Part shown: positions 1 to 19,386 of the stretch, one piece after another
Layout: every line of letters begins with the position of its first letter
Position numbering within the stretch: the stretch's first letter is position 1
Assembly (NCBI GenBank): GCA_039818205.1
Contig: JBCBUK010000006.1
Coordinates: 192,001 to 256,000, forward strand
DNA: 64,000 bases
Origin: Verrucomicrobiota bacterium
GTDB taxonomy: Bacteria > Verrucomicrobiota > Verrucomicrobiia > Opitutales > Cerasicoccaceae
Reading direction: 5' to 3'
Position numbers and translations under genes: made by a program
The notes under the pieces: model-generated
What the model saw: only the letters and a program-made list of their open reading frames with translations
Databases searched by the model: none
What the model was told of the DNA's origin: nothing

Positions 1-1
1 T

Positions 2-1102
2 GGCTTTACTTCGGTAGTTGGCACAGCGCAGCGGTTTCACGAGTTGAATCCCGACATCGATATTCACTGGCAGAAGCGCTCCTTACAGGAGTTTGCGGAC
101 AAGCCGTTAAAGCAGCTTGCGGAAGAGTATGATCTGTTAGTGATCGACCATCCGTGGGCTGGCTTCGCGGCCGCGAACGGCATTCTAGCGAATCTAACTG
201 ATCTGCTTTCTTCAGAGTTCCTGGCTGATCAAACGGCCAACTCGGTTGGGCAGTCTCACCCGAGTTACAACTTTGATGGCAAGCAGTGGGGATTGGCGAT
301 CGACGCAGCCTGCCCGGTTTCAGCCTACCGCCCCGATATCCTTGCGGAAAACGGTGCTGAAGTTCCAAAGACCTTTGACGAATTGATGGCGCTTGCGGAG
401 AAAGGCCTTGTTTGCTGTCCAAGCATTGCGCTGGATTGCTACGGGAATTTTCTGAACCTGTTGATGGCTGCCGGCGAGACGATTTTCCCGAATGAGGAAG
501 AGGTCGCCGACCGCGCTGTAGCGATTACTGCTTTGGAGCGCCTCAAGGCTTTCTCGGACCTAATTGAAGATCGCTTCTTCGAGTTGAACCCGATCCGGAC
601 AATGGAAGTGATGTCGCAGGAAGATAAGTTTGCTTACGCGCCTTACACCTATGGCTACACGAATTACTCCCGCAAGGGTTACGCTCCACGGCTATTGCAC
701 TTCGGTGATGTCATAGGCATCGAGGCTGACAAACCCGGAGCGACTATGTTGGGCGGAGCAGGCCTTGCGATATCAGCGCAGTGCAAACACCTCGATGTTG
801 CCAAGGCGTACGCTGAGTTTACCGGGTCAGCCCCGATTCAAAACGGTATCTACTTTGAAGTGGGCGGCCAACCGGGGCACCGCAGTGCTTGGCTCAATGA
901 GGATTTGAACCGCCAAACCGCGGATTTCTTTACCCGCACCTTACCGACGCTGGACCGAGCGTTCGTGCGCCCACGCTACGCTGGCTACTTGGATTTCCAG
1001 GATACCGCCTGCTTACACATCCATGACTACCTCCGCAAGGGTGGCGACGTTGAGTCCACCTTGGATACCGTAAACAAAATCTACCGCGAAACCCGACAAT
1101 GA
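2..1102 (+). CDS. Solute-binding-protein fold (family 1-like), 5'-truncated by the window edge
   Basis: The frame is open from base 2 ([18 protein letters not shown]...), so the TTG at 44 is not the true start. SBP-like motifs [25 protein letters not shown] and LGGAGLAIS. The stop overlaps the next ATG (ATGA). Confidence 0.75.
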
Positions 1103-2232
1103 GCTTACCCCTAGAAGGAATTACGGTACTGGAATTTAGCCAGTACCTGGCCGGCCCTTATGCCGGACTGCGCCTTGCGGACCTTGGCGCACGCGTGATC
1201 AAGGTTGAACGCCCTGGCGTTGGTGATGCTTGCCGCAAGCTTGCGACAAAAAATCTCTATGTCGACGGCGACAGTTTGGTTTTCCACACGATTAACCGAA
1301 ACAAGGAATCCTTTGCAGCCAACTTGAAGGACCCGGCAGACGTGGAAAAGGTGAAGCAATTGATCGCTACGGCAGACGTAATGACCCATAATTTCCGTCC
1401 CGGCGTGATGGATAAAATCGGCCTCGACTACGATAAGGTCAAGGCGATCAACTCATCGATTGTTTATGGAACAGTCACGGGCTACGGAAAGGTAGGCCCA
1501 TGGAAGGACAAACCGGGGCAGGACTTGTTGGCGCAATCGATGTCGGGGTTGACCTGGCTTTCAGGCAAGGCGGATGGTCTCCCGGTTCCTTTCGGCGTGG
1601 CGACCGCGGACATGCTCTGTGGAACTCACCTCGCTCAAGGCATTATGGCAGCATTGGTTCAGCGGGGACGAACCGGTGAGGGAACCACTGTTGAGGTGAG
1701 TTTGCTTGAGTCGATGATCGATTTTCAGTTCGAAGTCTTAACGACGCACTTGAGCGATGGTGGCCGCTTGCCAATGCGGGCCAAGGTAAGCAATGCACAT
1801 GCGTATCTTGGAGCTCCTTACGGCATTTACAAAACCTCGGATGGCCATATTGCCATTGCCATGGGATCTTTAAAGACCTTGTCCGAACTGATTGGTTGCG
1901 GACCTCTCGAAGGTGATTCCTTTGGCGAGCGCGATGCCATTCAGGCTCAGTTAGCAGACCACTTGGCGACTCAGTCTACCCAACATTGGTTAGATATTCT
2001 GGAGCCTGCCGACTACTGGTGTGCAGACGTGTTCTCTTACGCAAAGCTGATGGCGCACACGGGTTATCAGGTGCTCCAGATGGAACAGGAAGTGACGCGT
2101 CCGAACGGCACGAGCGTGAAAACCTTGCGTTGTCCAATTCGTATTGACGGCGAGCGCATCTTTTCCGATCGCGCCTCGCCAGTACTCGGAGAAGCCAATG
2201 GACGTTTAGAACAGGAGGTATTCAATGGGTAA
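1099..2232 (+). CDS. Family III (CaiB/BaiF) CoA transferase, copy 1
   Basis: [44 protein letters not shown]; catalytic Asp region ATADMLCG. Confidence 0.93.
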
Positions 2233-3379
2233 GCTATCACTACCACTCGAGGGGATTACGGTTCTCGATTTCAGTCAGTTCTTATCGGGGCCTTCTGCCA
2301 GTCTGCGTTTGGCCGACATGGGTGCGAGAGTGATCAAGGTCGAGCGCCCAGAAACCGGTGATATCTGCCGCCAGCTGTACATCTCGAATACCGAGGTCGA
2401 TGGTGAGTCGACGGTGTTTCATGCGATTAATCGCAACAAGGAGAGCTACTGCGCCAATCTCAAAAACGAATTTGATTGCGAGAAAGTACGCCAGCTTATC
2501 GCTAAGGTGGATGTTGTGATGCACAACTTTCGCCCGGATGTGATGACCCGTTTGGGCTTTGATTATGAGTCGGTGAAAGCAATTAATCCTAGCGTTGTTT
2601 ACGGTGTCATCTCCGGCTATGGAGAGGAGGGGCCGTGGAAGGGGAAGCCTGGGCAAGACTTGCTCGTGCAGTCACTCAGTGGCTTGACGTGGTTGAGCGG
2701 CAATGCGGGTGATGGACCCGTTCCGATGGGGTTGGCGATGGTGGATATTTTCGCCGGTGCCCACCTTGCACAAGGTATCCTTGCCGCCCTCGTTCGGCGG
2801 GGAGTTTCCGGCCAGGGTTCGCTGGTCGAGGTCAGTATGCTGGAGTCGATCCTCGATTTCCAGTTCGAGCCGTTCACCGTTTATTTTCAAGATGGGGGTG
2901 AAGAGCCGGAGCGCACCGCAAGCAATAGTGCCCACGCTTTGCTTGGCGCTCCCTACGGTGTTTATCAAACCACGGACGGTTATCTGTCTCTGGCAATGGG
3001 GTCGATTACGCAACTGGGTGAATTGCTTTCGTGCCCGGCACTCCTCGAGTTCCCGGATCCAGCGAGTTGGTTTACGCAACGAGATGAGATCAAGCAGATC
3101 CTGGCAGATCACCTGGTGACGGGGTCCACGCAGCAATGGTTGGATATCCTTGAAGCCGCCGACATCTGGTGCGCCAAGATCTTGGACTGGCATGAGCTCT
3201 TTGAGCATGAGGGCTTCAAGGTGCTTGATATGCTTCAGCACGTGACCCGTGGTAGCGGTGCCTCTTACGGAACCACGCGCATACCGATCAAATTCGGTGG
3301 CATTCGAGAGAAATCTGCGCTTGGCTCGCCCAAGGTTGGTGAGCATACTGACCAAATTGAACAAGAATTTCTGTCGTGA
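2225..3379 (+). CDS. Family III (CaiB/BaiF) CoA transferase, copy 2
   Basis: [44 protein letters not shown]; catalytic Asp region AMVDIFAG. Colinear paralog of copy 1, overlapping it by 8 nt. Confidence 0.93.
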
Positions 3380-4170
3380 CTGAATTGAGATCAGAGGTGT
3401 TGGTTGGCTTTTCCAGTGGTGGAAATGTTGGACATATTGTGTTTAATCGCCCGCCGGCCAACGCGTATGATCTTACCTTTCACGAGCAGTTCAACGAGGC
3501 GATTGATGCTGCTGAGCTGAGTGATGCCCGTGCAATCATCTTGGTGAGCGCTTTGGAGCGTTTCTTCTGCGCCGGGGCGGATATCAAGGCATTTGCCAGT
3601 AACAGCACCGCGGACAACAAGGCGATGGTCGCTTCGGCACAGCAAGCATTATCAAAGATTGAAGGAAGTCCCAAAGCCTACATAGCTTGCATTGCTGGAC
3701 ATTGCCTTGGCGGTGGCCTGGAAATCGCGATGGCCTGCGACATCCGCTTTGGGTCCGAAGGCGCTTACAAGCTGGGCTTGCCCGAAGCGCGTTTGGGATT
3801 GCTGCCGGGCAATGGTGGCTCTCAACGTTTGCCACGTCTGGTGGGTCCCAGCCAGGCCTTTGTGATGCTCGCCAGTGGAGAAAGCATCGGGCCTGAGGAA
3901 GCGCTGCGCATTGGCCTGTTGAACCAAGTTTTTCCGGAAAAAGGCGCGATGTTGCAGCACGCAGAATCGTTGGCGAACTCGATCGCACACTCGGCACCAC
4001 TCGCGGTGGCTGCATCCAAACGCGCGGTGAACGACGGCTTGGCGTTGCCGCTTAAGGAGGCACTGCGCCTAGAAGCCGAGCTACTGGAAAGTCTTTATGA
4101 AACTGATGACGCCAAAGAAGGCTTCAACGCCTTCGTTGAGAAGCGTCAGCCTAGATACCATGGCAAGTAA
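3376..4170 (+). CDS. Enoyl-CoA hydratase/isomerase (crotonase superfamily)
   Basis: FCAGADI oxyanion motif. [11 protein letters not shown] and [14 protein letters not shown] carry both catalytic Glu. The GTG start overlaps the upstream stop (GTGA). Confidence 0.93.
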
Positions 4171-4198
4171 CCGACTATCACCCAACAACCGATCCATT

Positions 4199-5659
4199 AT
4201 GAGTACCTCATCCTCTATCGACATCCAGTCTTACAGTTGTTACATTAACGGCAAGTTTACTGACTCGGCCAACGGAGCAATTATTGAAGTTGAAAATCCT
4301 GCCAACGGACAGGTCTTTGCCACTGTCCCCGCTTGCACCACTGATCAGGCGATGGAGGCATTGGATGCCGCTGAGAAAGCACAACCAGCGTGGCAGGCAA
4401 TGCCGCCCGCCGAGCGTGCTGGCCATCTTTATAAGCTCGCCGATGGCTTGACGGAGCAGCGTGAGCATTTTGCAAAACTCTTGGTGTTGGAACAAGGAAA
4501 GCCCTTCGCCCAGGCTCTCGGTGAGGTGGACGATACGATTCGCTACATCACTTACTCGGCCGAAGCAGGGCGTCGAATTTGCGGTGAGATCCTCCCGTCC
4601 GATTCGCCGAACGAACAGCTTTACATTTATCGAGTTCCCCATGGCGTCACGGTCGGGCTTTGTGCTTTCAACTATCCTTTGGCGTTGATCGGTCGCAAGA
4701 TTGGTCCTGCTTTGATCACGGGGAATACCATGGTGGTGAAGCCGCACGATGTCACTCCAGTGACTGGATGTGAGTTTGCGAAGTTGATTGAGGCTTCCGG
4801 TATGCCGGCCGGTGTTCTTTCGGTGATCACGGGATCGACCGCCGAAGTTGGGGGACCGCTCGTCGAAGACCCACGCACCCGGTTGATCACGATGACTGGT
4901 AGTATCCGCGCGGGGCAGGCCATTTATGCAGCGGCGGCGAAGAACATGACCGTGCTGTCCCTGGAGCTTGGCGGTAAGGCCCCCTATATCGTGCTTGAGG
5001 ATGCCGATGTTGATGCCGCCGTTGAGGCTGCCGTGATTGCCCGTTACGCGAATTGCGGCCAGGTTTGTATATGCAATGAGTCAGTCATGGTGCACGAAAA
5101 GATTGCCCAGGAGTTTACCGATAAGTTGATGCAGCGGGTGGCCGAGCTTCCAGTGGGTGATCCAATGAAAGATATTGGCATGGGACCCAGCACCAGCACG
5201 CCTGGGTTGGAGCGCGTCTTTGACATTGTGGAGAAGACAGTCGCCGAAGGAGCTGAGCTAGCGATCGGTGGTAAGCGGCCGGAAGGCGCTGAATTTGAAC
5301 GTGGGAATTGGATTGAGCCGACGGTTCTGCTCAATGCCAAACCGGATATGACGGCTCTCCGGGAAGAGATCTTTGGTCCGGTATTGCCAGTGGTAACGAT
5401 TTCCAGCTACGAGGAGGCGCTGTCGATCAGCAATGCCCGTAATGATGGCCTCTCTGCTTACCTGTGGACGAAGGACCACTCCCGCGTTATGCACGCGATC
5501 AACAATCTGCAGACTGGGACGATCTTCGTAAACAAGGGCATCTGTGGCTACATTCAAGGTTACCATAACGGACACAAGCTTAGTGGTCTTGGCGGCGAAG
5601 ATGGCACGCATGGACTCGAGGGTTACCTGCAAAAGCGGACGGTCTACATGACCTGGTAA
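4199..5659 (+). CDS. NAD(P)-dependent aldehyde dehydrogenase, paralog of AHG dehydrogenase
   Basis: [36 protein letters not shown]. Start moved to ATG 4199, which gives 486 aa, the same length as the paralog at 11680-13140. Confidence 0.9.
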
Positions 5660-5699
5660 GCCTTGTCTTATCCACAGGATCCATTCTACTGGCGGGACC

Positions 5700-6548
5700 A
5701 TGTCTATTCCAATTATTGATACTCATCAGCACTTAGTTTACGGTGATCGTTGGCCATACTCGTGGACTGCCGATATCCCGGCGCTTGCCAACCGTAACTT
5801 TCATTACAGCGATTACCTTGCCGAGATTGAAGGCACAGGCATTGCCGGCACGGCTTTCATGGAGACCTCGCCCGACGACCCGCATTGGTTGGACGAGACC
5901 AAGTTTGTGGATTCACTGAGCCAGGAACCTGGTTCACTGATTCGTGGACTGCTCGCCAACTGTCGCCCAGAAGACGATGGTTTCGAGGCCTACCTCGATT
6001 CGATCGCAGAGTATGGCGTTCGCGGATTGCGACGTATCTTGCACGTTGCGCCCGAAGGCACCGCTGAGTCCCCGCACTTTATCCCAAATTTGAAGCTCTT
6101 GGCTTCACGTGGTTGGACCTTTGACCTTTGTTTGTTTGAGAAGCAGCTACCCACCGGTGAACGTCTGGCGTCGGCTTGCCCCGAGGTTCAATTTGTCTTG
6201 GATCATTGTGGTGTGCCGGACATTCAGGGCGGCGATTTCAAGGCCTGGTCTGAGCGCATTGAGAGTATCGCCAAGGTGGACAACATCGCCTGTAAGATCT
6301 CGGGCATCATGGCCTATTGCCCAGAAAATGAAGTCACCGCTGATAAGGTGCGTCCCTACGTTGAGCACTGCATCGAATCCTTCGGCTGGGATCGTGTTGT
6401 CTGGGGCAGTGACTGGCCCGTGTTGACCATTACCTCGAACATTCGCAACTGGGTCGCTGCCACCCGCGAAATCATTTCGGGTGAGAGTGAGGACAACCAA
6501 GCCAAGCTCCTCCACCGGAACGCCGAGCGCATTTACCGACTCCAATAA
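5700..6548 (+). CDS. Amidohydrolase_2 family, sugar lactonase-like (L-fuconolactonase type)
   Basis: IIDTHQHL, VRGLRRILH, VLDHCGVP, CKISG, WGSDWPV. Confidence 0.82.
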   Translation: MSIPIIDTHQHLVYGDRWPYSWTADIPALANRNFHYSDYLAEIEGTGIAGTAFMETSPDDPHWLDETKFVDSLSQEPGSLIRGLLANCRPEDDGFEAYLDSIAEYGVRGLRRILHVAPEGTAESPHFIPNLKLLASRGWTFDLCLFEKQLPTGERLASACPEVQFVLDHCGVPDIQGGDFKAWSERIESIAKVDNIACKISGIMAYCPENEVTADKVRPYVEHCIESFGWDRVVWGSDWPVLTITSNIRNWVAATREIISGESEDNQAKLLHRNAERIYRLQ

Positions 6549-6575
6549 GAAGCTAATCGCAACCGAGAAACCCTA

Positions 6576-7643
6576 ATGATCGACTATCATCCCCAGCTCC
6601 CTCAAGAGAAGCGTCCCATCTATATTATTGGTGCGGGCGGCATCGTGAAAGACGCCCATTTACCTGCCTATCGCAAAGCCGGTTTTGAGGTGGCGGGTAT
6701 TACGAACCGAACCCGCGCGCGTGCCGATGGTTTGGCTGAGCAATTCGGAATCCCGAACGTTTTTGATAGCATTGAGGAGCTAATTGCTGCTGCGCCCGAA
6801 AATGCTATTTTCGATTTGACGCTCATGCCAGCACAGTTCGTCCCAACCTTGGAGCTGTTGCCGGATGGAGCCGCCGTATTGATTCAAAAGCCAATGGGTG
6901 ATTCGCTGCCCGAGGCTTTGGAGATTCTGGAGGTGTGCCGCCGCAAGAAGCTCGTGGCCGCCATCAATTGCCAATTGCGGTTTGCGCCATTCGTCATTGC
7001 AGCGCGCAATCTCGTGCAAAGTGGCGCGATCGGTGAGCTCTATGATATGGAGATTCGCGTATCGGTGCAGACGCCGTGGGATCTGTTTCCAAACGTAAAA
7101 TTTCATCCGCGTCTAGAGATTGCTCAGCACTCGGTGCACCACATCGACTTAGTACGCTCCTTCCTCGGTAACCCCCAATCGGTGATGGCCAAGACCGTGG
7201 CCCATCCCGCGAAACCGATGTCTTCCACGCGGACGGGCATGATCCTGGACTACGGAAACAAGTGCCGCGCAGTGCTCAGCGTGAATCACGACCATGATTT
7301 CGGGGCTGATAACCAGGAGAGCTTCATCAAGTGGGAAGGAACCAAGGGGGCGATCAAGGCCCGTATGGGGCTGTTGATGAACTACCCTGACGGAGCACCG
7401 GACAAGTTTGAGTATTGTTTGGTCAAGGAAGGTGAGAAGCCCGCATGGATCGAGCAGAAGCTGGAAGGTTCGTGGTTTCCGGAGGCTTTTATTGGCTCGA
7501 TGTCGAGCTTGATGTGTTTCGTTGAAGGCTTGGTAGATGAGATGCCAACGAGTGTCGAAAACGTGGTCAACACCATGGCGGTGGTTGAAGCCGCCTATGT
7601 CTCAAACGAGGCCGGGGGCATTGTGCCCGATTATCAAAGTTAG
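6576..7643 (+). CDS. Gfo/Idh/MocA family oxidoreductase (probable sugar dehydrogenase)
   Basis: IIGAGGIV Rossmann motif, VLIQKP, QLRFAP, HSVHHID. Confidence 0.85.
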   Translation: MIDYHPQLPQEKRPIYIIGAGGIVKDAHLPAYRKAGFEVAGITNRTRARADGLAEQFGIPNVFDSIEELIAAAPENAIFDLTLMPAQFVPTLELLPDGAAVLIQKPMGDSLPEALEILEVCRRKKLVAAINCQLRFAPFVIAARNLVQSGAIGELYDMEIRVSVQTPWDLFPNVKFHPRLEIAQHSVHHIDLVRSFLGNPQSVMAKTVAHPAKPMSSTRTGMILDYGNKCRAVLSVNHDHDFGADNQESFIKWEGTKGAIKARMGLLMNYPDGAPDKFEYCLVKEGEKPAWIEQKLEGSWFPEAFIGSMSSLMCFVEGLVDEMPTSVENVVNTMAVVEAAYVSNEAGGIVPDYQS

Positions 7644-7660
7644 TTCCAAATCAATTTATA

Positions 7661-8677
7661 ATGAAAGCAGTCTATTACAACGGTAACGCGGATTTCTCCG
7701 TCGGTGAATGCAAGCCAGTTTCACCGGCTGCCGGCGAAATTCGATTAGAAGTTTCTTATTGCGGTGTCTGCGGCACCGATATCCACATTGCGCATGGCGC
7801 CATGGATGCACGGGTGCCATCACCCATGGTCATTGGGCACGAAATGTCTGGCACCATTGCGGAGATAGGCGATGGGGTTGACGGGTTTGCTGTCGGCGAA
7901 AAAGTGGTCGTGCGCCCGCTTGACAATCGTGGCGAGACCGCTGCTGACCGCGGCTATAGTCACATTTGCCAAGACCTAAAGTTTATTGGCATCGATGCGC
8001 CAGGAGCATTTCAAAGCTCGTGGACAGTTCCTGCTTTTACGGTACACAAGGTACCCGCCGCCGTTGACCTAAAGCTGGCTGCGTTGGTGGAGCCATTGGC
8101 GGTTGCATGTCACGATGTTCGATTGGGCAAAGTTCAGAAGGATGAGCTTGCGTTCGTACTTGGTGGTGGACCGATTGGCATGCTTGTCGCCATGGTGGCC
8201 AAGCATGCGGGAGCACGTGTCGTCGTTTCTGAGATTAGTCCTTTCCGTTTGGATTTTGCCCGCTCGCTTGGGATGGAAGCTGTGAATCCGATGGAGACTG
8301 ATTTACCGACTTGGGCCCGAGAGCAAAGTGGTGGTAGCGGTGCGGATATCGTGTTTGAAGTATCGGGCGCCAAAGCTGCGGCTGCCTCGATGACCGATCT
8401 TCTCGCAATTCGTGGTCGGATTGTGGTGGTTGCGATCTACCCGAAGCCTGTTGAGATTAATCTGTTCCAGTTTTTCTGGAAGGAACTACGAATGAGCGGT
8501 GCCCGCGTTTATGAGCCAGAAGATTATGAGAAGGCGATTGAACTGATCGCTAGTGGAGAGTTGCCGCTGGACAAGATGATCTCCCAAGTCGAGCCATTGG
8601 AGAAGCTGCCTCAAGTCTTCAAGGACCTGGATAGCAATCCAGAGGCGATGAAGATTTTGATCGACTGCCAATCTTAA
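7661..8677 (+). CDS. Zn-dependent MDR dehydrogenase, likely 2-keto-3-deoxy-L-galactonate 5-dehydrogenase
   Basis: CGVCGTDIH, GHEMSG, VEPLAVACHDV, GGGPIG. Lies directly upstream of a KduD-type gene and near the AHG genes; the substrate is inferred from context. Confidence 0.8.
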   Translation: MKAVYYNGNADFSVGECKPVSPAAGEIRLEVSYCGVCGTDIHIAHGAMDARVPSPMVIGHEMSGTIAEIGDGVDGFAVGEKVVVRPLDNRGETAADRGYSHICQDLKFIGIDAPGAFQSSWTVPAFTVHKVPAAVDLKLAALVEPLAVACHDVRLGKVQKDELAFVLGGGPIGMLVAMVAKHAGARVVVSEISPFRLDFARSLGMEAVNPMETDLPTWAREQSGGSGADIVFEVSGAKAAAASMTDLLAIRGRIVVVAIYPKPVEINLFQFFWKELRMSGARVYEPEDYEKAIELIASGELPLDKMISQVEPLEKLPQVFKDLDSNPEAMKILIDCQS

Positions 8678-8695
8678 TCTAAAACACGAAATAAC

Positions 8696-9466
8696 ATGAG
8701 TATTCTAAACCAATTTGATCTCTCTGGAAAAGTTGCCCTCGTTACGGGTTGTAAGCGCGGCATTGGTAAAGCGATGGCGATTGCCCTGGCGGAAGCCGGA
8801 GCCGATGTTATCGGCGTAAGCGCTAGCTTGGAAACCAGTGGTAGCGCCGTTGAGCAGGCAGTCACTGCCTTGGGGCGTAAGTTTACGGCTTACCAATGCG
8901 ACTTTAGTGACCGTGAGTCACTGTATAAGTTCATTGAGCAGGCCAAGTCCGACAACCCGGTGATCGATATCCTCGTAAACAATGCTGGCACAATCCTCCG
9001 GAAGCCTGCTGCTGAGCACGGCGACGATCTCTGGGACAAGGTCATTGAGGTGAACCTGAACGCCCAGTTTATTTTGACGCGTGAGATTGGCAAGGAGATG
9101 GTTACGCGTGGATCCGGTAAGGTGATCTTCACCGCATCGCTCTTGACCTTTCAGGGTGGCATCACGGTTCCTGGCTACGCCGCGAGTAAGGGCGCCGTTG
9201 GTCAGTTGACCATGGCATTTGCTAATGAATGGGCTGGCAAGGGGGTGAACGTTAATGCGATCGCTCCAGGCTATATCGATACCGATAACACCGAGGCATT
9301 GCGAAACGATCCCGTCCGCAGCGAACAAATCCTGGCTCGAATCCCAGCTGGTCGTTGGGGTAAGCCCGAGGACTTTATGGGGCCGACCGTGTTTCTGGCG
9401 TCACCCGCAGCCGATTACATGAGCGGGCACGTGATGCTTGTCGATGGTGGCTGGATGGGCCGCTAG
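8696..9466 (+). CDS. kduD: 2-dehydro-3-deoxy-D-gluconate 5-dehydrogenase / 2,5-diketo-3-deoxy-L-galactonate reductase (SDR)
   Basis: TGCKRGIG, NNAG, ASLLTFQGGITVPGYAASKG, ARIPAGRWG, VDGGWMGR are all typical KduD motifs. Confidence 0.88.
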   Translation: MSILNQFDLSGKVALVTGCKRGIGKAMAIALAEAGADVIGVSASLETSGSAVEQAVTALGRKFTAYQCDFSDRESLYKFIEQAKSDNPVIDILVNNAGTILRKPAAEHGDDLWDKVIEVNLNAQFILTREIGKEMVTRGSGKVIFTASLLTFQGGITVPGYAASKGAVGQLTMAFANEWAGKGVNVNAIAPGYIDTDNTEALRNDPVRSEQILARIPAGRWGKPEDFMGPTVFLASPAADYMSGHVMLVDGGWMGR

Positions 9467-9486: not shown

Positions 9487-9516
9487 AAAGGGCGTGTCGG
9501 TTGGCACGCCCTTTTT
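9487..9516. terminator. Intrinsic terminator between convergent genes, probably bidirectional
   Basis: AAAGGGCGTG(tcggttgg)CACGCCCTTT, 10-bp perfect stem followed by a T run. Confidence 0.85.
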
Positions 9517-9525
9517 GTTGATGAT

Positions 9526-10407
9526 TTATTGGCTACCGAGCGAGTTGGAGTCGACGGGCTTGTAGGCGCGTATCCAGTCGATACGCATCGCATTCTTCTC
9601 GGGATCGAGGAGTTCTGCCTCAGTAGGGATGTTGCCCTCATTGACGCGATAGTCTTTGTTCTCAGTGACGATGACGAGGGTCATGATACCGTTCAAACCA
9701 GTGCCATCAGTCAATCCCCTGGGGTCGATCATACTCTCGCCGGATGCGGTTTCGATGAGTTCGCCATTTACATAGTACTCAATGGTCCACGGGTCCCGCC
9801 AGAAAATGCCCACGCGGTTGTAGCTATCGGACCATTTTCCGCCGTCGGGATGAAGGTGCCATGTGTTTGGGCCTTCCGGTTGGAAGAAGCCGCCCGGGCT
9901 ATTTAAACCGTGGGCCAAATGAAGTCGTGTTGCATTCCATGATTCACCGCGGCGATCGCTGCCGATGGCTTCGTAGATTTTTACTTCCTTGTGCTTCCTC
10001 TCATTTAGTAGTTTCACCGATGAGACGTTGGGGAGGCGGTTATTTTTAACCATGATCTCGAAGAAAACCGGGTACTCGAATTGCTCTTTCGAGTAAATTC
10101 CTCCGGCGTAGATTTTGGTGGCGACAGGCCCAGGGCTTGAAAGGAGCTTTAGTTTCCCGCGATGTGTGGAGACATTATCATCGGCTGCTATCGTTCCCCC
10201 CGTTTGTTGCAGAAGGCCGTGCTTCCACCGCCGATGGAATTCGGCGGAATCGGTTTCGTAGTTGAAGTCGTCGGAGATGGGTAGGAGTTGCCACTCCATT
10301 CCAGGTCCGGGATCAGTCGGAACTGGGTAGGAATCCCAGTCGTTGGCCAAGGTGGATTTGGCGAGCAGAAGCGCGGTAGCGAGTACGAGGAGGCCGGAGC
10401 AATTCAT
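9526..10407 (-). CDS. Secreted GH16 beta-agarase-like protein with an altered catalytic motif
   Basis: Signal peptide. Agarase scaffold motifs WDSYPVP, SDDFNY, YPVFFE, GIFWRDPWTIEYYVNG, IDP..TDGTGL, DWIRAYKPV. The catalytic segment reads EVKIYEAIGSDR. Confidence 0.85.
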   Translation of the reverse strand: MNCSGLLVLATALLLAKSTLANDWDSYPVPTDPGPGMEWQLLPISDDFNYETDSAEFHRRWKHGLLQQTGGTIAADDNVSTHRGKLKLLSSPGPVATKIYAGGIYSKEQFEYPVFFEIMVKNNRLPNVSSVKLLNERKHKEVKIYEAIGSDRRGESWNATRLHLAHGLNSPGGFFQPEGPNTWHLHPDGGKWSDSYNRVGIFWRDPWTIEYYVNGELIETASGESMIDPRGLTDGTGLNGIMTLVIVTENKDYRVNEGNIPTEAELLDPEKNAMRIDWIRAYKPVDSNSLGSQ

Positions 10408-10562: not shown

Positions 10563-11654
10563 CTAGGAAACCTCGTATGGCTTGAGCTTGTCCCAATCAA
10601 ACGTTACGCCAGTGCCGGGCTCATCCGAGGCTACCGCACGAGCATCCTTGGCCACGAGTGGCCGTGTGGTGTACTGGTCAATCGGGAAGCTGTGAACCTC
10701 GAGCCAGCCGGCATCAGGTTGGGACGACAGCAAGCTTACGTGAAGCTCCTGCATACCGTGGGTGCAGACCGTTACCCCGTGTTGGTGGGCGAGTTTGGCC
10801 GCTGCAAGCCAACCGGTTACTCCGCCGCAGTTTGACGCGTCGGGTTGAATGTAACTGAGCTTGGATTGTTCCAGTGCGTAGCCAAATTCATGGATGGTGT
10901 GGAGGTTCTCGCCCATGGCCAACGGCACACCCGTCGCATCGACGATTTGGGCGAAGCCCTGGTAGTTGTCCGGGATGATTGGTTCTTCGAACCAGAGTAT
11001 ATCGTACTCGGAAAACCCTTTCGCGGCTTCGATCGCCTGCTCCACGGTCAGGGAATAGTTGGCATCGACCATGAAGGTGATGTCTGGGCCGATGAGTTCG
11101 CGAACGGCCTTTGCGCGGTCGAGGTCTTCCTGTAGGTTCGGACGGCCGACTTTGATCTTCACGCCATTGTATCCAGCATCGAGGTAGCCGCGAATGTTAT
11201 TGAGTAACTTCTCGAGCGGGAATAGCAGATCGATACCGCCGCAATAAGCTTTGCAGGTATTGTCGGCACCGCCGGCCATCTTCCATAGGGGCTGACCTGC
11301 CTTCTTGCAGCGGATATCCCAAAGTGCGATGTCGATGGCCGAGACCGCGAAGGCGGCAATACCGCCTCGTGCGACATAGTGGACGTGCCATTCCATGAAG
11401 TCGTAGATCGCCTCGATGTCGTCGCCATCTTTGCCGATCAGGGCTTCTTGGAAATCGTGGTCCACCATGGCTTTTATGGCGTAGCCACCCTTGCCGCCGG
11501 TGTAGGTGTAGCCAGTGCCTTCGCTACCGTCATCCAGCTGGATGGTTACGGTGATTAACTCGAAGTGAGTATGGTCACCATGTTTTGCGTCGGTGAGAAC
11601 TTCAGCGAGCGGAACCTCGAACAGGCGAGTTTTAACGGAGGTAATTTTACTCAT
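10563..11654 (-). CDS. 3,6-anhydro-L-galactonate cycloisomerase (mandelate racemase subgroup, enolase superfamily)
   Basis: [51 protein letters not shown]. Immediately downstream of the AHG dehydrogenase. Confidence 0.87.
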
Positions 11655-11679: not shown

Positions 11680-13140
11680 CTACTTGAAGTTTACGTAGAA
11701 GGTTTTCTTTTCCAAGTATTGTTCGAAGCCATACTTGCCATCTTCGCCGCCCGTGCCACTCAGCTTATAGCCGTTGTGGAAGCCCTGGTGTTGTTCACCG
11801 TGGCCGCGGTTGATGTAGATTTCGCCGCACTCCAGTTCGTCGTTAAGCTTTAGAATCTTTTGCATGCTTTGAGTAAAGACCATGGCAGCGAGCCCGTATT
11901 CACAATCATTGGCGTAGCCAATGGCCTCGTCCATTGTTTTGAATTTGATGATCGGCAAGATCGGGCCGAAGGATTCTTCGTGGACGATGGTCATGTCTTG
12001 GGAGACATCAGTCAAAACGGTGGGCTCAAACCAGTTACCGTTTTCAAAGGCGTCACCTTCGGGGCGCTTGCCACCACTGGCGAGGGTGGCTCCTTCCTCA
12101 AGACTCATCATCACCAGGCGCTCCATATTCTCGAGTTCCCGCGAATTGACTTTGGGGCCCATGTCGCTGTCCTCGGACATTGGATCGCCGACCTTGAGGC
12201 CCTTTACCTTAGGGATGAACTTCTCCATGAACTCATCGTAGATCGATTCATGAAGGTAGAGTCGCTCGTTGCAGGTGCAGACCTGTCCACAGTTGTCGAA
12301 CCGGGAGTGAAGGGCCGAGTCGGTGGCGGCGTCAATATCGGCATCTTCGAACACGATGAACGGAGCTTTGCCACCGAGTTCCAGCTGCACGTGGGCCATG
12401 TTGTCCGCAGTTGCCTTAATGATTGCCTGTCCGGCAGGTGTGCTTCCGGTCATTGTCACCATATTCGTAATTGGATGCCGGCAGAGGGCATCACCCATGG
12501 TGCGGCCGGGTCCGGTGACGATATTCAATACACCGTCGGGGATCCCTGCAGCTTTTGCGAGATCGGCAAGCTCCAATGTCGCCAGAGGCGTCTCCGAAGT
12601 CGGCTTTACCACGATGGTGTTTCCGGCAACAAGTGCGGGGCCAATTTTGCGACCGGCTAATGCCAAAGGAAAGTTCCATGCCGTGATTGCCACGACGACT
12701 CCACGTGGATTCTTGTGAATCCAGATGTGTTCATCGGCGTTGTCGGACTTGACGATGTCACCGTCCATACTGCGAGCCCACTCGCAGGCATATTCGATAA
12801 ATGAGCAGGTGACATCGACTTCCATGCGAGCCACCTTGAGCAGCTTGCCTTGCTCGTGGACAAGCAGTTCGGCTAGTCTTTCGCGGTTTTCGCGAATCTT
12901 GGCAACGAACTCGCGAAGGATCTCGGCACGTTGACGCGGCGGTTTGGCCCGCCAGGCCGGAAAGGCATCTTCGGCAGCCTCGAGAGCCAGCAGCGCATCG
13001 GCCTCATTGCCATCCTCGATTTGAGCGATGACCTCATTGGTCGACGGATTTAATACGTCTTCGGTGTTACCGGAGCTTGAGGGGGTCCACTCTCCATTGA
13101 TGAAGAGTTGGTAGCTAGGGAGATCTGGTTGTGCACTCAT
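11680..13140 (-). CDS. 3,6-anhydro-L-galactose dehydrogenase (ALDH)
   Basis: [73 protein letters not shown]. In an operon with the cycloisomerase and GH2. Confidence 0.87.
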
Positions 13141-13169: not shown

Positions 13170-15536
13170 TTATTCAAAGTCCCAGAGTTGGGGGAAGTAG
13201 CGATAGTAGCTCTTGCCGTAGGAGTTTGCCGAGGCGTTGACCTTCTCATGCATTTCCTTGCAAAACTTCTTGGCCTCTTCTTGGTCGCCAACGAGCAGCG
13301 TATGCCAGTTGTCGCAAAGCAGTTCTCCGTCTTCGGAGACAAGCTGCATCTGCACCGTGAAGTTCTGGTTGGTTTCGCCTTCGACGAGCCAGTTGACGCG
13401 TTTGACCTCGACCGAGCTGTCGGCCGCGATGTCGACTGTCATGCTTTCCTCCAGGCAAACTTCGCCTTGAGGGTTCGTAATGGTCCAGCGAAGCGTTGCA
13501 CCTGGTAGATCTTCATGGCGATCGTTAACGACCCATAGGCCAGCATCAAAGTCCTTGCCCGCGTTCCAGCGGCGCTTGGTGTATTCGAGGCTGACGAGCA
13601 CGGGTTGGTAGGCGCGCTTGACGTAATCGAAGGCGAGTTTCTTTTCGCCATAGTAGTCGATGATACCCCACTTGATGTCCGGCATATGCGTCATGAAGTG
13701 GCAAAGGGATACGCAGCTGACGCGTGGCTTCCGGCGACGGAAATGCTCGAGCGCAAACTGGGCAATGATGCCGTGGGCCGTTTGCGTTGCCTCAACAAAG
13801 TCTTCGAGCGAGTCGCAGCGGAGCTCGCCGAACACCTCAACGTTGAGAACTTTCAGGATGTCGATATCGGCCCAGTGATAGCCCCAGCTCGGTCCCATTG
13901 GCCAGAGTTCGTCTTCTGGAATAAATTTTTTCAGGCTCTCGACCGATGGTGCGGACGCAGCGGTCAATTCCGGGATGACGCAGTAGTCGAGGTTCGGATA
14001 ATAATCCTCCATCAGCAGGAGGCCCGCCGCATAGTAGTGTTCATTGGCGTGGGAGGACTCTTTGGGCTTGTAGCCAAGGAGTTGGCCAAACTCGCCGCTC
14101 ATGGGTGAGGCGACAGCGTAGGGAATATTGGTTACCTGGCGAACGGCGTCACCGATGGTTTCCATGATCAGCTTGTTGTCGCTCTCAACGTGAGCATTGG
14201 AGAAGAACACTTCTTCGCCGCCCATGAACATGATGCATGACGGGTGATTGCGTCGTTGCTCAACAATCTGGACACATTCGTCGACCGCTGGGTGAAGGAC
14301 TTCTGGGTCGGCTTTGTAGGCCTGAGTCGCGAAACAGAAATTGGTCCACACCGTGATGCCTAACCGGTCGCACAGCTCGTAGAAGTAGGGAACCTCTGGC
14401 GGATGCCAGCCGAAGATGCGAAGGTTGTTGACGTTTGCCTCTTTGACTAACTTCAAGCGAAGATCATATTTCTCATCGCGGTTGCGACCATAGAGCATCG
14501 AAGGTGGGCCGCTCCAGCAGTTTGAGCGGAGAAAGTGTCGCTTGCCGTTGATCTCAAAGGTCCAATCGTTTTCGACTTCTTCTTCGGTAAATCCTGGGTT
14601 GCGCGACATGGTGATCTCGCGGATGCCAAACACTTCTTTGTGTTCGTCTTGCTCCTCGCCGTCGGCGGTCAACTGGATTGAAAGCTCGTAAAGGTTCTGA
14701 TCACCCATATCCCACGGCCACCAGAGCTTGGCTTGAGAGACTGGGATCTGGACACTGACCGTGTTTGGCCCCGGTGCAAGGCGGGCAGTTGTCTGGTGAG
14801 TGATGGGCTCTCCTTCGAAATTTTCGCCTTCGAGGGTGAAGCTAAGCTGAACGTCGACCGGGGCGTCCGTTTTACTCGTTGCCTCGACTTGGATCGTAGC
14901 GACCGCGTCGTCGCCCGTGACCTTGGACTCAATTCGAGTTTTCTGGATGCGTTGTTTACCGGTAGCTCGGACCTTGATGGGCTGCCAGATGCCGAGCGGA
15001 ACCACGTCGGGCATGTAGTCGCCTCCGAAGCAGAACTTACGACCCATGACAGGGCGGTGGTTGCGGGGTGGGGGATCGAGCTTGATCATCAGGATGTTGC
15101 AGCCCTCGCTCCACTTTTCAAAGCGAACGAAGCGAGTGACATCGAACTCAAAATGGGAGAACATGCCTTCGTGGCGTCCAAGGTAGTGGCCGTTGACCCA
15201 AGCCTCGCAGCTGTAGTCGACGCCTTCGAAACAAACACTGATCTCCTTCCCTTGTAATTCTTCAGGGGTGTCAAACTTGGTGATGTACCACCACTCGTAT
15301 TCTTGGACCCATTTGGCTCGACCGAAGTTGCGGCCGAAGTAGGGGTCATCAATTTCGCCAGCGCGCTGCAGGTCGGTGTAAACGTCGCCAGGAACACATC
15401 CTTGGTTCCAGTTGAAAAAGGTCCCTTGGTATTCGGAGGCAAGCTCGTGAAAGCCTTCTTTCACTCCTTGGCCAGGGCGGATGCGTTGCATTTTCCAGTG
15501 GTTGCCACTCAGGTCGATTTCGATGCGGGAACTCAT
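13170..15536 (-). CDS. GH2 glycosidase (beta-mannosidase-like clade), likely cytoplasmic agarolytic beta-galactosidase
   Basis: [67 protein letters not shown]. No signal peptide. Specificity inferred from context. Confidence 0.8.
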
Positions 15537-16086
15537 TTGCGTGGGGATATTCTAGTGTTTGGTTCGATCGATCGGAAAAGATCTAGATCAGTCGATTCAT
15601 TACCATAATCGATTTTATCGGATTTGGGAATGGATGGATTGGATTTATCTTTGTAGAAAATGGTATTTGATTGTCTCTTGGGTGGGGGCATGTTTTGGAT
15701 GGTCACGTCGTTTCTCGTTACCGGCTATACCTCGCCTAAAAACCCACGAAGATTGCGTTAAAGCCATGATTTGGGTTGAGGTGCTCGTCGTTATCGAGGC
15801 GATTTTACACGAGAGTAAATGGTTCGAAATAATCAGAATATTTGTGGTATTTGGGATATTGGACAAGGATTCGCTATCTTAAGATATTCCATTTTGCTTG
15901 CTTCAGACGGGTCGTTTTTTGACCTGAAAGGGATAGCGTTTATTCGATCTATTCAGAGATTCCGACGGTTAATTCCTATCAGATTCTCTGGATCAATTTC
16001 TTGAGATTCTTTTCTGCCTATTACGAATGCCGTGCTCCCGTGTGAAGCGTCTGACCCTAACAGTTATCTTTTTACACGATTAAGTT
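15537..16086. promoter_or_regulatory. Divergent control region between the AHG operon and the GH86-sulfatase operon
   Basis: 550-nt AT-rich gap between divergent starts. Palindromes CGATCGATCG (15565-15574), GATCTAGATC (15580-15589), AATCGATT (15607-15614) and TATCTTAAGATA (15875-15886). Confidence 0.6.
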
Positions 16087-17940
16087 ATGAAAAACAGTAT
16101 ATGGATTTTGGCATCGCTTGTTCCGGTGATCTTGGTTGCTGAGAAGACCGATCAGGTTGACGTTCGGTTGGAACCGACGGTAATTCGAAACATTGGCGGT
16201 GTGACCGAGTTTGATCGCGATCAGTTTGTCACCGTGCACGAGTCATTTGGCTCGACCGATTTGGCGGAAGAAGATCTCGATTTCATGGAGAACGTGCTTG
16301 AGGCTCGATATGGCCGCGACGGTGGTTTGCTTTCTTGGCAAGCTCCCAACGTAAAAGCGGATCCAAACAATCCGGATATGCCGGATGTTGAGGAGGTGAA
16401 GCGCGTCGCAAAAGAATATCGTGCGGAATATGACGGCCGTCGGATGACTCCTAGGCACATGCGCGAAGTAGTATTGTGCACGCATCCGGAGTTAATGCAT
16501 GCGATGGCTGCGAATTCGCATGCTGAATGGGGCCCGCGGACTAATGAAGGGATCGCGGAGTACACTGCTCAGTTCATGAAACATGCGTTCGACGACAATG
16601 ACCGCCCAAAGTATCTCGAGGTGTTTAACGAGCCATTTGTTAAAGCTAAGAAGATTGGAACGACGGTTGAGGCACTGTCGGAGCAGCACAACGTAGTGGC
16701 AAAGCGCGTTAAGGAACTCAATCCCGACGTCATGGTCGGTGGTTATGCGGCGGCCTGGATCGAAGTCGAAGACCGCAATTTTGATCATTGGGACGGCTGG
16801 CAAAAGACTTTCATGGATATTGCCGGTGAGAATATGGATTTCTTTTCCTACCATATCTATGACGGGGTAAACGTGCAGGGGTCACCCCGTGTGCGAACTG
16901 GGAGCAATTCCGAGGCAATTATGGATTTGATCGACTCCTATAGCCATATGAAGTTTGGCGTGGCGAAGCCGATCCTGATTACTGAATACGGCAAGATCCC
17001 GGAAGGTAACATGGGTATGATGGCTTATGATCCTGCACGTTCCGCGGGCATGCTTTACTCAATCAATGGTCAACACATGACCTACATGGACCACCCGGAT
17101 CGCATCTTGAAAGCGATTCCGTTTGTCTTGGGCAAGGCGGAATGGACTTATGTGCTGAAGGGCGAAGGGAAGCCCGGTGAGGCCAACGTATTTTTGCTCT
17201 GGCGTCGCGATGAGGACGGCGAGTATGTGACCACGGACCTGACCTTGTTCTACGAATTCTGGAAAGGTATTGAAGGTGAATGGCGGATGAGTGAGAGCTC
17301 TAACCCAGATGTCCGAGTTCACTTGTTGGCCGATGATAATCAACTGGTGGTCGCCTTGGCCAACCTTGATCACGCGCCGAAGACGGTCAACCTTTCGGGC
17401 CTCGAGAATGTGAAGGCCAAGTCGGTTGAGTTGCGTCAGCTTACCACGCACACAGACCTTCCACTGGTCGCGAGCCGCTCGTTGGATCGTATTCCAAGCA
17501 GCGTTGAATTGGCCGATGGTATGGGCGCTATTTTGGTGATCGATCTAGAAGAGCCGATCAATGCGAAGAGCATGGTTAAAGAGCATCGGATTTACGCAAC
17601 CGACTACCTGCAGGACATTGTCGCGGATCAGCCCATTGAATTTCGTTTCGTCGATACGCCAACGGGTGCGGGTTCTGCAATTCTCCGAATGTCGCCTGGT
17701 CGCGAGTTGGGTAAGGCCGTGTTGCCAACCTCGGTCACGTTGAATGGGCAAGCGCTGGAGCTGCCGAGCAACTGGGCTGGCGATGACCAAGCGGGCCGGA
17801 AAAATTTCTTTGGGATGATCGAGATTCCGGTTTCCATGGATCTTTTGAACGCTGAGAACGTCGTTGAGATTATCTACCCGGACACCGGAGGCAAGGTCGC
17901 CAGTGTTGTTCTTCAGGTCAACCGTGTCGAGTCGACCTAA
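16087..17940 (+). CDS. GH86 beta-porphyranase/agarase, secreted
   Basis: Signal peptide. [18 protein letters not shown], acid/base [18 protein letters not shown], nucleophile [16 protein letters not shown]. Confidence 0.83.
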
Positions 17941-17984
17941 GGGTCGGTTCGAGTCCACCAAGCATTCCCATTGATTCCCCAATC

Positions 17985-19364
17985 ATGAAACCATTTGCCC
18001 TCTTCCTTATCGCTCTGTCTTTGAGCGTCAGTGCGTTTGCGAAGCAGCCCAACGTTATTGTGATCATGGCCGATGATCTCGGCTACGGTGATCTTGGCTT
18101 TACCGGGTCGAAAGAGATATTGACGCCCAACTTGGATCGCTTGGCGAAAGAGGGGGTTGAATGCACTTACGGTTACGTAACGCATCCTTACTGTGGGCCG
18201 TCACGGGCAGCGTTCTTGACTGGTCGCTATCAGCAGCGATTCGGGTTTGAGGCCAACCCACCGTATGCGCGTTTGAACAAGTATTCGGGCATGCCTGAAT
18301 CCGAGATCCTGATATCGCAGCGCTTGAAGAAGGAAGGATACAAAACGGGCATCGTGGGTAAGTGGCATATTGGGGCCCATGCAATCCATCATCCGAACAA
18401 TCGCGGGTTCGACTACTTTTTCGGTTTTCTTGGGGGTGGACACGATTTCTACCGGGTTGATAGTCGGAACCCGGTTGGCGAAGGCTACCTCGAACCGATG
18501 ATGGAGAACGGTAAGCCGGTGGATGTCGAAGGCTATCTGACGGACCAGCTGACTAACATCGCGATCAGTTTTATGGAACGCAACCAGAGCGAGCCTTTCT
18601 TTTTGTTCGTTTCCTATAATGCTCCGCACACGCCCTTACAGGCGCCTAAGGAAACGGTCGAAAAGTATGCTGGCCTGCCAAGCTGGGAGCGTCAGACTTA
18701 TGCGGCGATGGTCGACAATATGGATGAGAATATCGGCCGCATCGTTCAATCCACCGAGGATCTCGGCATCGCTAAGGATACACTGATTTTCTTCCTTAGT
18801 GACAATGGCGGACCGCGCCACTGGGATAAGTCTGAGCCGGCCTTCACCTCCAATGCGCCTTTTCGGGGGCATAAGGGAGCAACTTATGATGGCGGTGTCC
18901 ATGTGCCCTTCATTGCCTATTGGCCTGGTACGCTGCCTGCCGGTACGCAGTTTGACAAGCCAGTTGTTTCGATTGATATATCCCGCACGGCAATTGACTT
19001 AGCGGGTGCTGATGCCGAAGGAATGGAAGGGGTCAATTTGGTTCCGTTTTTGAGTGGGGAGACAACGGAGTCTCCGCATGAAGCCATTTACTTCCGTCGG
19101 CGCAATAACGCGGCTTGGGGAGTGGTGACCGATGATCACTACAAGTGGTTGAAGAACGACTGGGATCAGCCCAACGAACTGTATAACCTGAAAGCTGATC
19201 CGGCCGAACAAAATGACCTCATTGCATTGGAGCCCGAACGTGCGGCCACACTTGAAAAGAAGTGGAAAGCGTGGAACAAGGATAACATTCCATTCACGTT
19301 CTCGAGTTTCGAGCGCTACCACAAGCAGATGGATGATTTCTACAGAACCATGAAACCCGAATAA
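17985..19364 (+). CDS. Formylglycine-dependent (S1, Cys-type) sulfatase, secreted
   Basis: Signal peptide. [28 protein letters not shown] (CxPxR), [22 protein letters not shown]. Confidence 0.95.
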
Positions 19365-19386
19365 GGAACTGTTCAACAGCAGCAAG

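Follow-up and report, generated by a model that had tools for sequence, protein, structure and literature searches.

A conserved CoA-transferase operon in a verrucomicrobial agar locus and its possible role in the breakdown of 2-O-methyl sugars

Introduction

The agar sugar 3,6-anhydro-L-galactose (AHG) is degraded via a dehydrogenase, a cycloisomerase, a 5-dehydrogenase, and a 5-reductase (PMC5069468; sources with PMC numbers are cited throughout from the excerpts available), and the excerpts on this route and on that of 3,6-anhydro-D-galactose (D-AnG) describe no CoA step (PMC5698469, PMC5613140, PMC5069468). Here we analyze an operon at the beginning of a 64,000-nucleotide stretch (the window; assembly GCA_039818205.1, contig JBCBUK010000006.1, positions 192,001 to 256,000) from a Cerasicoccaceae bacterium (Verrucomicrobiota), which lies beside AHG genes and encodes two family III CoA-transferases, a crotonase, an aldehyde dehydrogenase (ALDH2), and a protein with a substrate-binding-protein fold (SBP1). 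We lean modestly toward a role in turning 2-O-methyl sugar acids of L-galacto configuration into 2-keto-3-deoxy acids, by a CoA-dependent elimination and loss of methanol.

The operon resembles the AHG pathway in its location in the same locus, in an aldehyde dehydrogenase related to AHG dehydrogenase (AHGD), in a common tail of a medium-chain dehydrogenase/reductase (MDR) and a KduD-like short-chain dehydrogenase/reductase (SDR), and in a proposed key step of C3-ether elimination. It differs in having a CoA step, an aldehyde dehydrogenase of its own (with Gly450), and its own candidate IclR operator, and in a crotonase where the AHG pathway uses an enolase-fold cycloisomerase. The CaiB/CaiD carnitine system, FldA/FldBC, and HadA/HadBC also combine a family III CoA-transferase with a dehydratase, and their net reaction dehydrates a free hydroxy acid. 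From the CaiB/CaiD type, the module is set apart by its sugar-acid context, the interchangeability of crotonase and MaoC, a constant cytoplasmic SBP-fold partner, and CoA-transferases that score 70–77 bits against the CaiB model (cut-off 413).

The oxidative L-fucose pathway (dehydrogenase, lactonase, L-fuconate dehydratase, SDR, fumarylacetoacetate hydrolase-family (FAH) hydrolase) is alike in that, in rhizobia, it has orthologues (44–58%) of the module's Gfo dehydrogenase, lactonase, and mutarotase; it requires no CoA-transferase, MaoC, or SBP1, yet these are conserved beside it. Sugar methyl ethers are removed in agar loci by the CYP236A demethylase, reported active only on 6-O-methyl-D-galactose (G6Me) (PMC6292453); that reaction is oxidative, O2-dependent, and yields formaldehyde, whereas the route proposed here would be eliminative and hydrolytic, would yield methanol, and would act at position 2. 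Methylated sugars are described as degradation-resistant and accumulating in surface ocean water (PMC6292453), and LA2M and L2M6S units occur in agarans; in the agarans of some Curdiea species, LA2M is a major component (PMC7511586).

A literature search, with subscription journals mostly outside its coverage, found no description of the module, nor of the fate of 2-O-methyl-AHG or of 2-O-methyl-fucose from rhamnogalacturonan II (RG-II) after its release by GH139. The module is not mentioned in the excerpts of PMC10033563; nothing on it was found in the Sinorhizobium meliloti literature searched by locus tags or in the GapMind-carbon text and supplements, and the Zobellia microarray supplements hold no label for a family III CoA-transferase or MaoC. 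The module is real, conserved, and undescribed in the literature searched. Judged by sequence, it lies outside every named CoA-transferase family and is neither an ABC transporter nor AHGD; new here are the agar-tied crotonase/ALDH2 branch with Gly450 as its signature, the operator, and the counts on GH139.

Operon structure and control

The core of the module consists of a signal-less SBP1 and two family III CoA-transferases, and occurs with two branches: an anhydro-sugar branch (crotonase and ALDH2) and a pyranose branch (Gfo, lactonase, and MaoC). The window locus carries both. Below, G000 is the genome of the window and C6 its contig; L-numbers are homologous loci, except that L001 and L003 are stretches of G000 itself, and G-numbers are genomes. 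The operon comprises the following features.

1..1102, + strand: SBP1, cytoplasmic MalE-fold protein, 382 aa (gene starts at G000:C6:191954); core component
1099..2232, + strand: family III CoA-transferase 1, catalytic Asp171; PF02515, 326 bits
2225..3379, + strand: family III CoA-transferase 2, Asp174; PF02515, 319 bits; 58% identity to CoA-transferase 1
3376..4170, + strand: crotonase, Glu116 and Glu137; PF00378; anhydro-sugar branch
4199..5659, + strand: ALDH2, AHGD paralogue; 47% to the window AHGD, best PDB match 6J75
5700..6548, + strand: amidohydrolase-family lactonase candidate; PF04909; pyranose branch
6576..7643, + strand: Gfo/Idh/MocA sugar dehydrogenase (Gfo); PF01408; pyranose branch
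7661..8677, + strand: Zn-MDR, likely 2-keto-3-deoxy-L-galactonate 5-dehydrogenase, assigned by context
8696..9466, + strand: KduD-like SDR, likely 2,5-diketo-3-deoxy-L-galactonate 5-reductase; TIGR01832, 327 bits, cut-off 339
9487..9514, + strand: intrinsic terminator, 12-bp hairpin and T-run
C6:191081-191848, - strand, outside the window: divergent IclR
C6:190626-191078, - strand, outside the window: MaoC dehydratase
C6:191900-191932 (L003 9900-9932), IclR/SBP1 spacer, outside the window: tandem operator candidate
10563..11654, - strand, context: 3,6-anhydro-L-galactonate cycloisomerase; 637 bits to 5XD7, 133 to the D-specific DauB 5OLC
11680..13140, - strand, context: AHGD proper, adjoining the cycloisomerase; 763 bits to 6J75

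The nine genes, all on the + strand, lie where the preliminary description of the window had placed them, with the same overlaps, short gaps, and crotonase Glu pair; only the ALDH2 start is revised. The overlaps are 4 nt (SBP1/CoA-transferase 1), 8 nt (between the CoA-transferases), and 4 nt (CoA-transferase 2/crotonase), and the gaps after ALDH2 are 40, 27, 17, and 18 nt. The ALDH2 reading frame was listed from 4097, but because homologue alignments begin at residues 1–13, the ATG at 4199 is the likeliest start (486 aa, with a 28-nt gap after the crotonase). Pfam matches in the operon proteins were PF01547/PF13416 (SBP1), PF02515 (twice), PF00378, PF04909, PF01408, and PF00107/PF08240; ALDH2 and the KduD-like SDR were placed in families by NCBIfam, with scores under the named cut-offs. 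The terminator previously described as closing the run holds up: the hairpin at 9487-9514 (z -3.92) folds better than 200 of 200 shuffles (0/200 fold as well), and terminator-like matches taken together show no excess (13 found vs 15.7 expected from shuffles).

The window opens inside the SBP1 gene, whose ATG lies 47 bases ahead of it, and the unit extends upstream to include the SBP1 start, the divergent IclR, MaoC, and the tandem operator. The 105-bp IclR/SBP1 spacer contains two imperfect 14-bp palindromes 19 bp apart, a spacing shared by 19 of 20 homologous divergent spacers from several phyla. With a matrix built without G000, the spacer pair ranks top in the 4.85 Mb genome (37.6 vs 24.2), the motif having been picked after the spacers had been viewed; the scan gave no second tandem site of similar score and showed no wider regulon. 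The palindromes are a candidate IclR operator, and one operator is common to both branch types. IclR is present in 46 of the 80 loci surveyed below, and MaoC (both types) in 53.

Distribution of the module

Of 8000 candidates scored, at least 3895 are related to SBP1 at E 1e-20, and the nearest named homologues of SBP1 (76–82%) are mostly from Verrucomicrobiota. We surveyed the 80 top-scoring loci out of 583 genome loci with SBP1; they come from Verrucomicrobiota, Bacteroidota, Gammaproteobacteria, Acidobacteriota, Chloroflexota, Planctomycetota, and Bacillota. A CoA-transferase homologue lies within 10 kb of SBP1 in 72 of these, and six of the eight others are truncated loci. Crotonase and ALDH2 occur together in 21 loci, each without the other in one, and neither in 57, such that 21 of 22 crotonase loci have ALDH2. 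MaoC and Gfo occur together in 45 (of 50 with Gfo), MaoC alone in four, Gfo alone in five, and neither in 26. Thus the lactonase and Gfo, which had been grouped with the crotonase, belong instead to the second branch, with the MaoC upstream of the window.

Genomes were also searched as a whole, for 50 of the 80, hand-chosen to include both branch types: 28 encode ALDH2 orthologues (>=55%), 37 encode MaoC orthologues (>=63%), and all 50 encode at least one; 13 have ALDH2 without MaoC. With ALDH2 standing proxy for crotonase at the genome level, the CoA-transferase is always paired with an acyl-CoA dehydratase, either MaoC or that of the crotonase/ALDH2 branch (50/50). G696 has two core copies, one per branch, and therefore crotonase, ALDH2, SBP1, and two CoA-transferases form a self-contained unit.

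Neighbors across the 80 loci include sugar transporters, mutarotases, and glycosidases, so that homologous modules sit in sugar contexts, as had been expected. The core itself, earlier taken for a red-algal trait, is not specific to users of red-algal sugars, being widespread among soil bacteria that lack the cycloisomerase.

The crotonase/ALDH2 branch does co-occur with AHG genes, as predicted in the preliminary description. The cycloisomerase (>=60%) is present in 27 of 28 ALDH2 genomes versus 6 of 22 others, two weaker matches (48%, 36%) being left uncounted. Within an even sample of 301 genomes from one Bacteroidota family (centre G016; five candidates scored per genome; G016 and G019 already known beforehand), nine encode ALDH2, and all nine also have an AHGD-type match (46–49%) and SBP1, against backgrounds of 25/301 for each. 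In the window's order (151 genomes), 10 have the cycloisomerase; close SBP1 occurs in four, G000 included, all cycloisomerase-positive, and was not found in the other six of the 10, while distant SBP1 without cycloisomerase occurs in 10 genomes. The crotonase/ALDH2 branch is thus accessory among AHG users.

ALDH2, CoA-transferases, and dehydratases

ALDH2 scores 440 bits to 6J75, which we take to be an AHG dehydrogenase (its PDB record reads "aldehyde dehydrogenase A"), vs 763 for the window AHGD. It keeps the catalytic Cys290 and Glu256 along with Arg166 and His456. At position 450, however, 27 of 27 ALDH2 sequences have Gly, where Glu is found in 18 of 18 AHGD, in 6J75 and 3K2W, and in E. 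coli AldA (E443); I291/T and Y159/F are further fixed ALDH2/AHGD differences. E443 of AldA presumably forms a hydrogen bond with the lactate 2-OH, a role for which we found no confirmation in print; if this is right, the change to Gly would suit a capped O2. ALDH2 forms its own group beside AHGD (SH-aLRT 87, in a quick tree with a single long outgroup), and its identification as AHGD itself was rejected, given 47% identity, the separate group, and altered pocket residues. AHGD is retained alongside, and therefore ALDH2 is an addition.

Both CoA-transferases score over the PF02515 cut-off, and the catalytic Asp (171/174) is present in 148 of 148 sequences. None of the NCBIfam equivalogs (Frc, CaiB, TfsCaiB, Mct) was reached; the best scores are to dicarboxylate CoA-transferases, far under cut-off (214 vs 750). 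AMACR-type racemases have the His of a G-H-D motif, and a role of one CoA-transferase as such an epimerase or 2-methylacyl-CoA racemase was rejected, the His position being Gln in 147 of 148. The two CoA-transferases are one open reading frame in L144 (14864-17242) and L145 (14656-17109).

The crotonase keeps E116 and E137, the Glu pair of hydratases, in all orthologues at >=40% identity, and MaoC keeps Asp38 and His43 in 60 of 60. A second MaoC type (about 35–41%), often between the CoA-transferases (e.g., L052 near 12300), lacks the catalytic His (Val in 21/21) and is possibly a non-catalytic subunit. A further MaoC-like match (37%) lies on a contig other than the operon's (G000:C5:105470-105889), and in L001, a 7-bladed lactonase (17484-18584, - strand) follows MaoC on the same strand, with a two-domain RhaM-type mutarotase (15067-15774, - strand) also near the module.

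The Zn-MDR was assigned by context. Its next paralogue in G000 is 32% identical, and MDR and KduD are single close copies in this genome. Of 17 loci, seven have an MDR orthologue (49–56%) no more than 1.5 kb from AHGD and six have a KduD orthologue (76–79%) beside AHGD, and the pair serves ordinary AHG breakdown as well. It had been read as evidence of the operon's product; the pair is indeed part of the operon, and accompanies the module in L074 (a genome without cycloisomerase match), but as these are the only close copies and required for ordinary AHG, their position is weak evidence on the product.

SBP1 and SBP2

SBP1 is predicted to have a MalE-type fold (AlphaFold model, pLDDT 92.7); its best matches to solved structures have 18% identity and TM 0.84, with SmoF and MalE3 at TM 0.77–0.85. 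A PDB sequence search gave weak SBP matches only, and all clusters returned from the ESM Atlas are SBP-labelled. SBP1 lacks a signal peptide: the fold begins about five residues from the Met in the window protein and, judged by eye in the loci printed, near the protein start in homologues. No ABC permease or ATPase partner is found in the operon, and a role as a periplasmic transporter subunit was rejected for want of a leader. W12, H14, R16, R42, D65, H66, D117, R339, and R341 are conserved in at least 97% of 103 sequences. Among four longer matches, SBP1 is fused to a CoA-transferase in three (protein clusters) and to an enolase-family domain in one.

A second leaderless SBP-fold protein, SBP2 (e.g., L052 13947-15176; no match in G000), alternates with the lactonase: exactly one of the two is present in 47 of 50 Gfo loci, some lactonase matches in this count being only 24–28% identical. 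SBP2 is fused to Gfo in L150 (11855-14131). The fusions, the leaderless state, and the alternation suggest catalytic roles for SBP1 and SBP2, although SBP1 could instead be a carrier or sensor.

Proposed pathway

Reading substrates, chemistry, and the role of SBP1 from gene content and conserved residues, we propose an IclR-controlled operon for L-galacto sugars with a methyl ether on O2. ALDH2 would oxidize 2-O-methyl-3,6-anhydro-L-galactose (the agarose unit LA2M, a free aldehyde) to the acid; from ring-forming sugars, namely 2-O-methyl-L-galactose (agarans) and, in soil relatives, 2-O-methyl-L-fucose (pectin RG-II), the acid would be made by mutarotase, Gfo, and lactonase. What would unite both branches is the L-galacto configuration found in L-fucose, L-galactose, and AHG alike. 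The CoA-transferases (Asp171/174) would form a thioester, acidifying C2-H, the rationale being that Mg-dependent enolase-type dehydratases could not use a blocked 2-OH. Elimination of the C3 ring ether by the crotonase (Glu116/137), or of the C3-OH by MaoC (Asp38/His43), would give a 2-methoxy-enoyl-CoA, after which CoA would be handed on to the next substrate. The enol ether would be hydrolyzed to a 2-keto-3-deoxy acid and methanol, most plausibly by SBP1; this step had been envisaged as spontaneous, but a catalyst is probably needed. Finally, MDR and KduD would channel the L-galacto product into 2-keto-3-deoxygluconate (KDG).

The 2-O-methyl substrate first suggested in the preliminary description is partly supported, by the ALDH2 change and by a glycosidase linkage. 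In L004, L027, L030, and L039 (Rufibacter, two Pontibacter, Botryobacter), a DUF5703 gene directly precedes SBP1. The proteins score about 900 bits to the GH139 structure 9HYQ (two tested), and the 12 BT0984 residues checked (catalytic and Trp-triad) are all present in the four loci; BT0984 is inactive on 4-nitrophenyl (4NP)-fucoside and active on the 2-O-methyl compound (PMC12282258). Among 351 genomes of the order of the GH139-adjacent loci (at most two GH139 candidates scored per genome), GH139 occurs in 24, SBP1 in 17, and both in seven, six of them within 15 kb.

The pyranose branch also has relatives in annotated L-fucose clusters. Sinorhizobium meliloti pSymB and Martelella encode lactonase, mutarotase, Gfo, MaoC, and IclR orthologues (33–65%) in such a cluster, whose annotation also names an L-fuconate dehydratase, an SDR, and an FAH hydrolase; the CoA-transferase and SBP1 genes are either next to it or 10 kb off. 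The window lactonase is 44–47% identical to the amidohydrolase of these clusters, and the window Gfo 47–52% to their Gfo; against the L-fucono-1,5-lactonase model NF052480, the lactonase scores 84 bits, under the equivalog cut-off of 400. Since plain fuconate already has a dehydratase in the rhizobial cluster, a CoA step there would imply a blocked analogue.

Several observations weigh against 2-O-methyl L-galacto substrates. By general stereochemical rules, the (2S,3R) substrate would fit a crotonase face, and not the usual (2R,3R) syn elimination of MaoC. The genomes are related, which inflates the co-occurrence contrasts; ALDH2 genome G025 had no cycloisomerase, and in L008, which is on a plasmid, ALDH2 occurs although none of the genes annotated across 31 kb is an agar gene. 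As for GH139, the four adjacent loci are close kin, two of the seven double-positive genomes repeat known loci (G028 and G753 have the coordinates of L030 and L004), 17 of 24 GH139 genomes are without SBP1 and 10 of 17 SBP1 genomes without GH139, GH139-like genes in L073/L087 lack W162, E472, and N729, and the GH139 search of G000 gave no match. GH106, GH127, and esterase genes lie between the module and GH139 in L144/L145, two of the other double-positive genomes, and other RG-II sugars are therefore candidates. Lastly, distant SBP1 relatives (27–39%) have other partners or no CoA-transferase nearby.

The most credible alternative, which we rate well below the 2-O-methyl route, is the same CoA chemistry on another blocked sugar: a 3-O-methyl sugar (methanol leaving from C3), one that carries sulfate, acetyl, or some other group on O2, or an RG-II sugar such as aceric acid. 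The two branches may then have substrates unrelated to each other. The flanking GH127, GH106, and esterase genes of L144/L145 would fit this, as would the RhaT/RhaM labels and the MaoC stereochemistry (which would also suit L-rhamno sugars), the different dehydrogenases of distant SBP1 subfamilies, and the occurrence of 3-O-methylgalactose in red-algal galactans (PMC7511586). However, GH139 is the glycosidase directly before SBP1 in the Rufibacter/Pontibacter-type operon, both branch types use one operator, agarose and RG-II fucose have 2-O-methyl as their shared substituent, and the ALDH2 change points to O2, if the presumed role of E443 holds.

It is unlikely that the module is a redundant CoA route acting on L-galactonate, L-fuconate, or 3,6-anhydro-L-galactonate in unmodified form. 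Annotated L-fucose clusters do contain Gfo, lactonase, and mutarotase, which may well act on plain fucose, GH29 genes occur in 13 of the 80 loci, and MDR/KduD are part of the operon; but the direct enzymes are kept (cycloisomerase as counted above; L123 and L124 each have an L-fuconate dehydratase in their annotation), there would be no need for a second AHG dehydrogenase with altered residues, and the absence of a detected SBP1 from six of 10 cycloisomerase genomes in the window's order is as for a side substrate. Plain dehydration of L-galactonate, the alternative offered previously, is likewise disfavored.

It is most improbable that the anhydro branch serves the D-enantiomer (carrageenan D-AnG or a derivative): ALDH2 is only 47% identical to the L-specific AHGD, and agar users often also use carrageenan, yet the neighbors are agar-type GH50, GH86, and GH117-like genes, and DauA, at a published 35% to the Vibrio L-enzyme (PMC5698469), is farther than ALDH2. 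An ordinary organic-acid or aromatic CoA pathway lying in the agar locus by chance is equally improbable: although CaiB, crotonase, and ALDH families are frequent in such pathways and the best NCBIfam scores are to dicarboxylate CoA-transferases, those scores are far under cut-off, the neighbors across 80 loci are sugar genes, and no thiolase or acyl-CoA dehydrogenase is among the labelled recurring clusters.

If 2-O-methyl L-galacto acids are the substrates, bacteria with this operon should release methanol as they digest algal and plant walls, more product could be gained from methylated agar, and the operon would supply candidate enzymes on a binding-protein fold; the minimal test set is five genes (ALDH2, two CoA-transferases, crotonase, SBP1). 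A wider proposal is tentative, and rather doubtful as a whole: widespread oxygen-independent O-demethylation of red-algal and land-plant-pectin 2-O-methyl sugars, with SBP1 as enol-ether hydrolase and SBP2 as lactonase substitute. If true, transporter-type binding-protein folds would have been turned into cytoplasmic enzymes.

Related modules and neighboring genes

Distant SBP1 subfamilies (27–39%; L109-L113, L007, L124) are accompanied by other types of CoA-transferase, crotonase, SDR, and lactonase, in one case near an enolase-family gene, and probably represent parallel modules for other sugars; P0122 is an SBP1-enolase fusion. A PF01717 cobalamin-independent methionine-synthase-like gene lies beside SBP1 or MaoC in L016 (1761-2906), L018 (8720-9901), and L019 (8727-9965), conceivably in connection with methyl-group handling, and genes for a DUF1537-type acid-sugar kinase, a PdxA-like protein, and a dihydrodipicolinate synthase (DHDPS)-like aldolase lie directly ahead of the module in L150 (2589-8401) and L151 (12079-17825).

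The window operon is surrounded by an agar locus with the L-specific cycloisomerase (a D-type DauB being ruled out by 637 bits to 5XD7 vs 133 to 5OLC), AHGD, GH2, two GH86, and one GH16. A CYP236A-like 6-O-methylgalactose demethylase (366 bits to 6G5O) is encoded about 10 kb upstream, and its gene is co-directional with the crotonase and ALDH2 in L116; both points count in favor of the 2-O-methyl reading. Upstream of the window, this P450 forms a cluster for 6-O-methylgalactose with a ferredoxin, a Zn-dependent alcohol dehydrogenase, and an esterase (L001 6606-10124, - strand), in which no ferredoxin reductase reading frame was seen. The GH16 beta-agarase-like gene (9526-10407, - strand; 232 bits to 3WZ1) has the motif E-x-K-x-x-E. 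The usual GH16 motif is E-x-D-x-x-E, and the altered protein may have weak or changed activity; a 44% paralogue is on C5. Two GH86 porphyranase/agarase-like genes flank a sulfatase at 16087-21336 (+ strand), Pfam matching their C-terminal sandwich domains only. A GH2 clade found in 11 loci, mostly near crotonase/ALDH2 (window 13170-15536, - strand; L038 3152-5635; 46% to each other), is a candidate glycosidase for methylated agaro-oligosaccharides.

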